Source: Octopus vulgaris (taxonomy: Eukaryota). Taken from it: DNA of 64,000 nucleotides. The stretch spans positions 131,502,001-131,566,000 of the forward strand of contig OX597817.1 in assembly GCA_951406725.2 (NCBI GenBank), in the 5' to 3' direction. A program made the translations under genes and the position numbers. Below are positions 33,969 through 35,112 of this stretch, piece by piece (position 1 is the stretch's first letter; the number at the start of each line of letters is the position of its first letter). Under the pieces are notes generated by a model. The model did not search any database, was not told the origin of the DNA, and was given only the letters and a program-made list of their open reading frames with translations.

Positions 33969-34138
33969 GATATATATATATATATATATATATATATATA
34001 TATATATATATATATATATATATATATATATATATATATATATATATATATATATATATATATATATATATATATATATATATATATATATATATATATA
34101 TATATATATATATATATATATATATATATATATATATA
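33969..34138. repeat. (TA)n microsatellite, about 170 bp
   Basis: Pure TA run; dozens of similar runs occur across the window. Confidence 0.95.
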
Positions 34139-35112
34139 CTTTATAATTAGGGTTCAGCAACAATTTGCTTCACCACATACCGAAGTTTAGAAATAGCGGT
34201 CAAAAGATCTTAGCTATTCCTTCTACTTTAAAGGGGGTTCCCAGAAAAACCAAAGCACTTGAAAACAAACCACGCTGGCAAAAGGGAAAAAACGACGAAA
34301 ATCATTCTATATTAGGTTACCCACGGACGTACGTTACATATTAAATTTGTAGGCACTGGAAAATATCTCTTCACCTAACGGTATCAGAGAGATCATATTC
34401 CGTGCTAGTGCCGCCAAATTCAAAAAACGAAAGAGAATAAGTGATCCTCCCTCGCCCACCAGCGTGTTGCCAATTAAGATGCTACAGTGAGAAACTGTAG
34501 TTTTTTTTATCTTGGAAAAAATTCCATTATCAATAATAACAAAGGGTGAAATCAATTAATTAAGAAGTAATCAGTAATTTCACCAAGAAGAATTCGGCAT
34601 GAAAAGGACCATTTCATAGTAAGCTTAAGTAATACTTCGTTTTTTGAATTTGGCGGCACTAGTACGGAATATGATCTCTCTGATACCGTTAGGTGAAAAG
34701 ATATTTTCCAGTGCCTTCAAATTTAATATGTAATAATTTATAATTGAGGAATCCCACGCTGAAGAACCGAAAATAGTCGGGTAAGGTATAATTATTTATT
34801 AGTTATGCTTTATACTGATTTAATTCCGAAACGTACGTCCGTGGGTAACCTAATATAGAATTATTTTCGTCGTTTTTTCCCTTTTGCCTGCGTGGTTTGT
34901 TTTCAAGTGCTTTGGTTTTTCTGAAGGAATAGCTAAGATTTTTTTACTGCTTTTTCTAAACTTCGGTATGTAGTGAAGAAAATCGTTGCTGAACCCTAAT
35001 TATAAAGTATTACTTAAGCTTACCATGAAATGGTCCTTTTCATGCCGAATTCTACCTGCTGAAATTACTGATTACTTCTTAATTAATTAATTTCGCCCTT
35101 TGTTATTATTAT
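34137..35112. mobile_element. Composite inverted-repeat element (family H4, Penelope pLTR/retrozyme-like) between (TA)n tracts
   Basis: Blocks A (34137-34335), B (34334-34430) and C (~34533-34637) recur inverted as B' (34636-34733), A' (34830-35009) and C' (35006-35110). Confidence 0.8.
34753..34845 (+). ncRNA. Type I hammerhead ribozyme with extended stem II
   Basis: CCCACG-CUGAAGA-[62-nt hairpin]-GAAA-CGUACG-UC-CGUGGG: 6-bp stem I, palindromic stem III, GUC site with predicted cleavage after 34839. Confidence 0.82.

Follow-up and report, generated by a model that had tools for sequence, protein, structure and literature searches.

An inverted, non-coding hammerhead repeat resembling a PLE-type insertion

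Organization of the inverted element

The interval 34136-35110 of the 64-kb window (the whole stretch of DNA that was analyzed) holds two arms of one repeat that are joined head-to-head and are composed of three inverted segment pairs, A, B, and C, delimited by self-BLAST and exact junction extension (Table 1). The right arm, of 475 nt, has the plus-strand order B-HHR-A-C, with HHR denoting the hammerhead motif, and the left arm, of 502 nt, has the minus-strand order C-X-B-A. Segment X is present in a single copy at the locus. Both orders agree, to the base, with those given in the first-pass annotation of this DNA. Between the arms, 95/98 positions are identical in pair B, 172/181 aligned columns in pair A, and 100/106 positions in pair C. 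These inverted pairs score 164-248 bits, compared with 37.4 bits for the best inverted self-match in 100 shuffles. The implied unit X-B-HHR-A-C measures 575 nt with the right-arm version of A and 594 nt with the left-arm version.

Altogether, the arms differ at 18/385 aligned columns (4.7%) and by two indels. One of these is a 19-nt piece of A that is carried by the left arm and absent from the right arm. The other is a deletion in the left arm, for which the earlier claim of a lost ribozyme core of ~100 bp at an AA microhomology can now be given exactly: 98 nt are gone, i.e., 96 nt plus one copy of the 2-nt AA. The outward 3' ends of both arms sit in TA tracts, and no target-site duplication is readable within the (TA)n; such tracts are common in the window, which makes an AT-rich target a weak criterion, though one that applies on both sides. 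Segment C extends the right outward end by 100 nt and is missing from the left outward end. The 5' start of the left arm (equivalent to 35005-35007) coincides within 1-6 nt with its own 3' end (equivalent to 35007-35010), and this arm comes very close to one repeat unit in length. Self-BLAST detected no direct terminal repeat beyond 6 nt that could pass for a PBS/PPT-bearing LTR, and no further copies of the HHR repeat family elsewhere in the 64-kb window.

Table 1. Coordinates of the element and its flanks (window positions).
Feature	Position	Strand	Evidence
(TA)n tract, left target/flank	33970..34138	.	sequence, junction
Left arm segment A, 200 nt including the 19-nt piece; putative priming site 1 at 3' end, abuts (TA)n	34136..34335	-	self-BLAST, junction
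B-to-A deletion junction, 98 nt gone, AA microhomology	34334..34335	-	junction
Left arm segment B	34334..34431	-	self-BLAST
Segment X, 100 nt, joined to C and B in other copies	34432..34531	-	contigs
Left arm segment C (tail)	34532..34637	-	junction extension
Head-to-head inversion junction, 2-nt overlap	34636..34637	.	junction; X4 contig
Right arm segment B, 5'-truncated arm start	34636..34733	+	self-BLAST
Type I hammerhead motif	34753..34845	+	fold, Rfam, contig variants
Right arm segment A	34830..35010	+	self-BLAST
Right arm segment C (tail); putative priming site 2 at 3' end, enters short TA tract	35005..35110	+	self-BLAST, junction
Short AT/TA tract, right target/flank	35111..35123	.	sequence

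Since an inverted repeat beside long microsatellites is a setting in which assembly may go wrong, an artefact was considered. It is scarcely credible here, because the two arms are distinguishable by their 18 column differences and because a 101-nt contig of the public run X4 (record 28), which may share its source with the window, spans the inversion junction with a single difference.

No long ORF is present in 34136-35110, so the RT plus GIY-YIG ORF that characterizes an autonomous Penelope-like element (PLE) is lacking. The longest frame (73 aa) and a 45-aa frame yielded no relevant homology match: a Pfam match of the former to MtrD (E 0.033) lay below the cut-off of that family, and its two phmmer matches among 1.84 billion proteins were discarded as repeat-protein artefacts. 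No ORF homology was found for segment X, and ORF searches at the locus and collection scans revealed neither an RT/GIY-YIG remnant nor an autonomous partner. The unit is non-coding and low in GC (0.34 in 34001-36000, flanks included) and folds better than shuffled sequences, with z-scores of -3.8 and -5.1.

Other repeats in the window

A second family, found at 8130-8452 and 24817-25190, also consists of head-to-head arms, each of which contains an outward-reading hammerhead-like core. One arm ends straight in a microsatellite and the other carries a tail of ~75 nt, and the ends lie in (TA)n/(CA)n. As this family exhibits the same anatomy twice, inverted arms with a one-sided tail can be regarded as ordinary in this DNA.

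The window as a whole is repeat-rich, animal-type DNA, and its repeats look like those of octopus. Minimal hammerhead motifs of the PLE-pLTR type belong to further families at 31655 (+), 13891 (-), and ~33880 (-), where they are located in short repeats bounded by (TA)n. Pieces of a third family at 33750-33968 and 35330-35425 (+), which are 83% alike, flank the studied element in opposite orientation. Related short foldback elements with 74-85% arm identity lie at 7853-8114, between (TA)n tracts and adjoining the 8130-8452 element, and at 41985-42273. An inverted repeat at 45105-45913 (~93% over 221 nt) extends inward and has (TA)n and a short repeat piece at its center. The element at 45942-46420 exhibits 70-nt terminal inverted repeats and, by eye, transposase-like internal remnants; we take it to be probably a mariner-type deletion derivative. 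Broken non-LTR retrotransposon ORFs, in several frames and with endonuclease and RT motifs recognized by eye, occupy 28400-31250, 35500-36970, and 51083-52880. In addition, there is an isolated 5S rRNA gene or pseudogene at 18175-18293 (-; Rfam, 96.9 bits) and a 324-aa open frame at 2486-3460 (+), which in our estimation looks like a TGF-beta/BMP propeptide exon.

The hammerhead motif

The motif of the right arm folds as a type I hammerhead with a 6-bp stem I, CUGAAGA at 34759, GAAA at 34828, a long stem II (a 20-bp hairpin), and a stem III of 2 bp capped by a palindromic loop; the predicted cut lies after 34839. A gathering-threshold Rfam scan gave no match to this motif. Below the threshold, Hammerhead_1 (RF00163) matched with 19.8 bits (E 0.094; gathering score 34), in an alignment that handles the 62-nt stem II region as an insert. 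The core (CUGANGA, GAAA, NUH, C11.1, and the three stems) is complete except for G10.1. At the corresponding position, 34766, this copy carries A and the family carries G (98-100% by contig depth in those three non-RNA runs that cover the site), so that the surviving ribozyme of the right arm may be impaired. Pair-preserving family variants were identified in stem I (34755 C>T with 34843 G>A) and in stem II (34775 A>G with 34820 T>C, plus 34776/34819), in each case as unphased sites. Judging from these variants, the hammerhead is conserved as a structure in the family and is best described as a putative ribozyme.

Through its deletion, the left arm has lost CUGANGA together with stem II, half of the GAAA, and the 5' side of stem I, but it retains the 3' side of stem I, stem III, and the cleavage site. 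According to exact junction extension, neither arm starts or stops at the predicted cleavage site. The deletion does not end there either, the nearest end being ~8 nt off, and a monomer end defined by the ribozyme was therefore rejected.

Splice-donor-like GT dinucleotides are situated within and just after the hammerhead, at 34781 and 34845, and an acceptor-like pyrimidine tract followed by CAG is found in segment A of the left arm. The motifs at 34781-34890 might match the Penelope pLTR intron. No skip matching these splice-like signals occurs among the 14 contig joints listed in the following section.

Other copies in public contigs

Of the 24 runs listed, none of which is on record as RNA, four (X1, X3, X4, and X10) contributed contigs, which were aligned to the non-redundant part of the element, 34432-35010, at 80% likeness. 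Three of the runs are DNA or unlabelled and stand under three organism codes, and X10 is an RNA run by guess only, so its coverage does not count here as a sign of expression. The sets comprise 981, 621, 982, and 112 records, and all results refer to the 32 pieces, the 40 variant rows, and the loose ends and joints listed for them. As C and X are reversed in the reference, opposite-strand joints represent links of the family unit, and same-strand skips from C or X to A represent inversions.

The 14 joints listed include three X-to-B joints (runs X1, X3, and X10), three A-to-C joints (runs X1, X3, X4, and X10; one without the first 48 nt of C), seven head-to-head joints, and one other ribozyme-removing deletion in the family (34729-34923). 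An A-to-C loose end is also present in at least 8 contigs of X1. Single diverged contigs contain C-X-B in X1 (record 1; 13 differences, 14 gaps) and X10 (record 9), although these two have variants in common and may represent one locus, and B-HHR-A is contained within one X4 contig (record 30; 19 differences). Because the X-B, A-C, and C-X links thus exist in other, diverged copies, the cyclic order X-B-HHR-A-C is a property of the family. The cyclic or tandem unit of ~580 nt that had been postulated from the locus is thereby confirmed at 575-594 nt, and a fixed linear order in which X is unlinked to C, the outcome that would have spoken for a one-off rearrangement, is not what these copies exhibit. 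Each link of the cycle lies in separate short contigs, and no contig piece with two ribozymes is found among the pieces listed.

In the seven head-to-head joints, reversed C or X is connected to forward A at varied breakpoints, as expected for the junctions of other inverted copies. Internal similarity fails to explain these joints (4-13 of 25 matches); their shorter side measures only 21-27 nt. The X4 joint 34637-34953 indicates that another copy is also broken at 34637. The 98-nt deletion of the locus itself is missing from the 14 joints listed, in contigs that by their nature cannot prove absence, and it appears to be restricted to this copy. Loose ends at 34923/34928 were encountered in 4/4 runs and identify the 19-nt piece as the family state.

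Nineteen listed variant sites could be mapped to both arms. At five of them, both arms have the family-minority letter in common; at six, the arms differ, and in 6/6 of these cases the other arm carries the family letter. Since minority letters are common to the arms and the differences are private, a single insertion event followed by private mutation is suggested. A history at the DNA level, i.e., two separate insertions or a later inversion/deletion in an older tandem copy, would accommodate the arm divergence of 4.7% with its two indels, and the position of the locus between third-family fragments of opposite orientation (33750-33968 and 35330-35425) marks the region as a repeated target. 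It is nonetheless improbable, as it does not account for the five minority letters common to both arms, for the orientation of both 3' ends outward into TA tracts, or for the recurrence of head-to-head joints in other copies and in the second family.

Median contig depth in X1 and X4 reaches 110,000-221,000 at the 3' end of A and in C, and amounts to 13,000-16,000 in the 5' part of A, 2,600-8,100 in B and HHR, and 1,100-1,300 in X. Depth is therefore ~100-fold greater at the A end and C than at X and falls abruptly where C meets X, but contig depth does not equal copy number and relatives having A/C alone could inflate the peak. Still, the shape of the profile suggests fixed 3' ends combined with 5' truncation, as opposed to a circle entered at random points; short pieces from the 3' end appear to make up most of the copies. 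Varying permutation points, which the first-pass annotation proposed to look for, find no support in this strongly polar profile, nor in the arm ends, none of which is located at the cleavage site. The same polarity, together with the unmatched termini (the tail being one-sided), the pair-preserving variants in stems I and II, and the conservation of G10.1 in the family, renders it very improbable that the locus is a DNA transposon or MITE-like foldback with a chance hammerhead-like motif, for which the inverted termini and the Rfam score under the gathering threshold could be put forward.

An exact-pattern scan with the HHR 3' motif gave 0 matches in metagenome contigs and 0 in viral contigs. 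A collection scan with a 16-mer from A returned 104 matches, which were dismissed as chance (best alignment 35 nt, 38.3 bits).

Comparison with known systems

Several studies describe comparable arrangements. PLEs were reported to form partial tandems with an adjoining inverted 5'-truncated copy at (TA)n targets and to carry a tail of 30-40 bp, often at one end only, and non-autonomous Chlamys elements are described alongside them (PMC8557442). Deletions at microhomologies, inverted halves in permuted order, and inverted pLTRs whose tail is optional are likewise on record (PMC3846280). Hammerheads were identified in pLTRs, with opposite-strand pairs 100-700 bp apart, and circular templates were proposed (PMC4209133). 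A PLE protein was found to cut and extend both strands of AT-rich DNA; reverse transcription started at two positions inside the RNA, downstream of the HHR, that bound the tail, and HHR cleavage was dispensable in vitro (PMC11167929). Penelope is counted among the abundant cephalopod repeats (PMC8967140).

The locus thus resembles EN+ PLEs (Penelope/Poseidon, Neptune, Nematis, and Naiad), as portrayed in these sources, in several respects: a 5'-truncated arm is inverted and joined head-to-head, there is a partial tandem join, one end carries a tail that is preceded by a type I HHR, the target is AT-rich or (TA)n, and junctions as well as deletions exhibit microhomology (PMC8557442; PMC3846280; PMC11167929). 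This match with published insertion anatomy upholds the link to inverted Penelope pLTRs that had been drawn from the sequence. In contrast to EN+ PLEs, the locus has no ORF, its body comprises only 100 nt, its tail measures 100 nt instead of 30-40, and its long arm, one unit in length, starts at the tail with no direct pLTR upstream. Naiads fit less well, being without canonical HHRs in the same sources.

Non-LTR retrozymes were defined, and their mobilization by PLEs was suggested, in PMC7229834; they have been argued to derive from pLTRs and are given lengths of 51-972 bp (bioRxiv 10.64898/2026.07.22.740005). Metazoan members share with the locus a non-coding unit, low in GC and a few hundred nt in length, one type I HHR with a 6-bp helix I and a 2-bp helix III with palindromic loop, the cyclic order, and the proposed PLE derivation. 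Metazoan retrozymes, however, occur as tandem arrays containing at least two HHRs and are expressed as circRNA, whereas the locus has one HHR, is inverted, and is known from DNA and contigs alone; its stem II is also much longer than the canonical 4 bp (PMC7229834; bioRxiv 10.64898/2026.07.22.740005). Non-autonomous Chlamys elements, e.g., MRC1, likewise depend on PLEs, do not code for protein, have pLTRs, and form head-to-tail copies, but they are algal and belong to a clade described as lacking canonical HHRs (PMC8557442).

The locus also differs from L1 twin-priming inversions, as it has neither poly(A) nor L1 sequence and its arms overlap over most of their length, instead of representing complementary parts of one RNA. 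In L1 twin-priming, two priming events on opposite target strands are joined head-to-head by microhomology, as is proposed here.

A model for the insertion

With a probability of roughly 0.6, the locus represents one head-to-head insertion of a non-autonomous, PLE-derived (retrozyme-like), non-coding HHR unit that was copied from two priming sites. This interpretation builds on the arms themselves, the cyclic order in other copies, the (TA)n at the outward 3' ends, the one-sided C, and the common origin of the arms. An inverted 5'-truncated head-to-head copy, a one-sided tail, an HHR upstream of the tail, and an AT-rich target are the features expected of a PLE derivative, and they are present here.

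We infer the following enzyme, RNA template, and sequence of events. A transcript of more than one unit (tandem) would be bound by a PLE protein, with the RT/GIY-YIG endonuclease acting in trans, and the AT-rich target would be nicked on both strands. cDNA synthesis would be primed by one strand at the end of A (site 1) and by the opposite strand at the end of C (site 2), C being the tail. The cDNA from site 2 would end at the start of B, and the cDNA from site 1 would copy A-HHR-B-X-C and halt at the next site 1, which is perhaps protein-bound or structured. Subsequently, the two cDNA ends would be joined head-to-head via the 2-nt microhomology. A microhomology jump, either during or after insertion, would cost the left arm 98 nt of its ribozyme, and both arms would afterwards accumulate private mutations (4.7%). 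By analogy, C appears to behave like a PLE "tail" between two priming sites, and it counts against this reading that the tail measures 100 nt and published tails 30-40 nt.

A different template, namely a circular monomer RNA made by the ribozyme (as in a non-LTR retrozyme) and copied by PLE machinery, would turn the left arm into a single lap that ended where the RT met its own start. A linear template alone fails to explain why this arm, to within 1-6 nt, halts where it started, a coincidence for which a random stop has a chance of ~1% by a post hoc estimate. The non-coding unit with its one type I HHR lies inside the retrozyme length range and folds better than shuffles, and circular PLE templates have been proposed (PMC4209133). 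The coincidence is also explained by a stop at the upstream site 1 on a linear dimer, and the X4 copy that is also broken at 34637 fits such a general stop at site 1 just as well. Moreover, the argument for a lap comes from one locus, the right arm, primed at site 2, read past site 1, and no HHR dimer is found among the contig pieces listed. For PAc, PMC11167929 reports that unprocessed RNA served as the principal substrate and that none of the RNA-seq reads ended at the HHR cut. As a linear tandem transcript yields the same C-X join, a circular template is not needed, and a single lap around a circle is considered rather unlikely, if somewhat more probable than the DNA-level history. The earlier proposal of reverse transcription from a circular or multimeric RNA consequently holds in part: the tandem order in other copies and the unit-length left arm agree with it, and the circle can be dispensed with.

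The preferred reading, two-site priming on a tandem transcript, largely explains the feature by known PLE biology: it works like a PLE insertion and, without an ORF, is not an autonomous PLE. No description of the HHR repeat family or of unit-length inverted arms was found in the literature searched, and the family may already be catalogued (Repbase, Dfam, or the supplements of PMC8557442 or bioRxiv 10.64898/2026.07.22.740005). As the anatomy has already been described for PLEs, the locus would on this reading constitute a new family record. A non-coding, retrozyme-sized HHR unit with the PLE insertion signature (inversion, one-sided tail, and TA target) is of modest value, and it adds junction-level support to the link between PLEs and retrozymes, which PMC7229834 and bioRxiv 10.64898/2026.07.22.740005 argue from common features, co-occurrence, and phylogeny. 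If the left arm did represent one lap, it would provide direct structural evidence that PLE enzymes mobilize retrozyme circles, primed at the Penelope tail site, in a very-many-copy family in which lap length can be counted. Should unit-length arms prove over-represented in this family, the use of circular templates by PLE RT would become testable from genome data alone.
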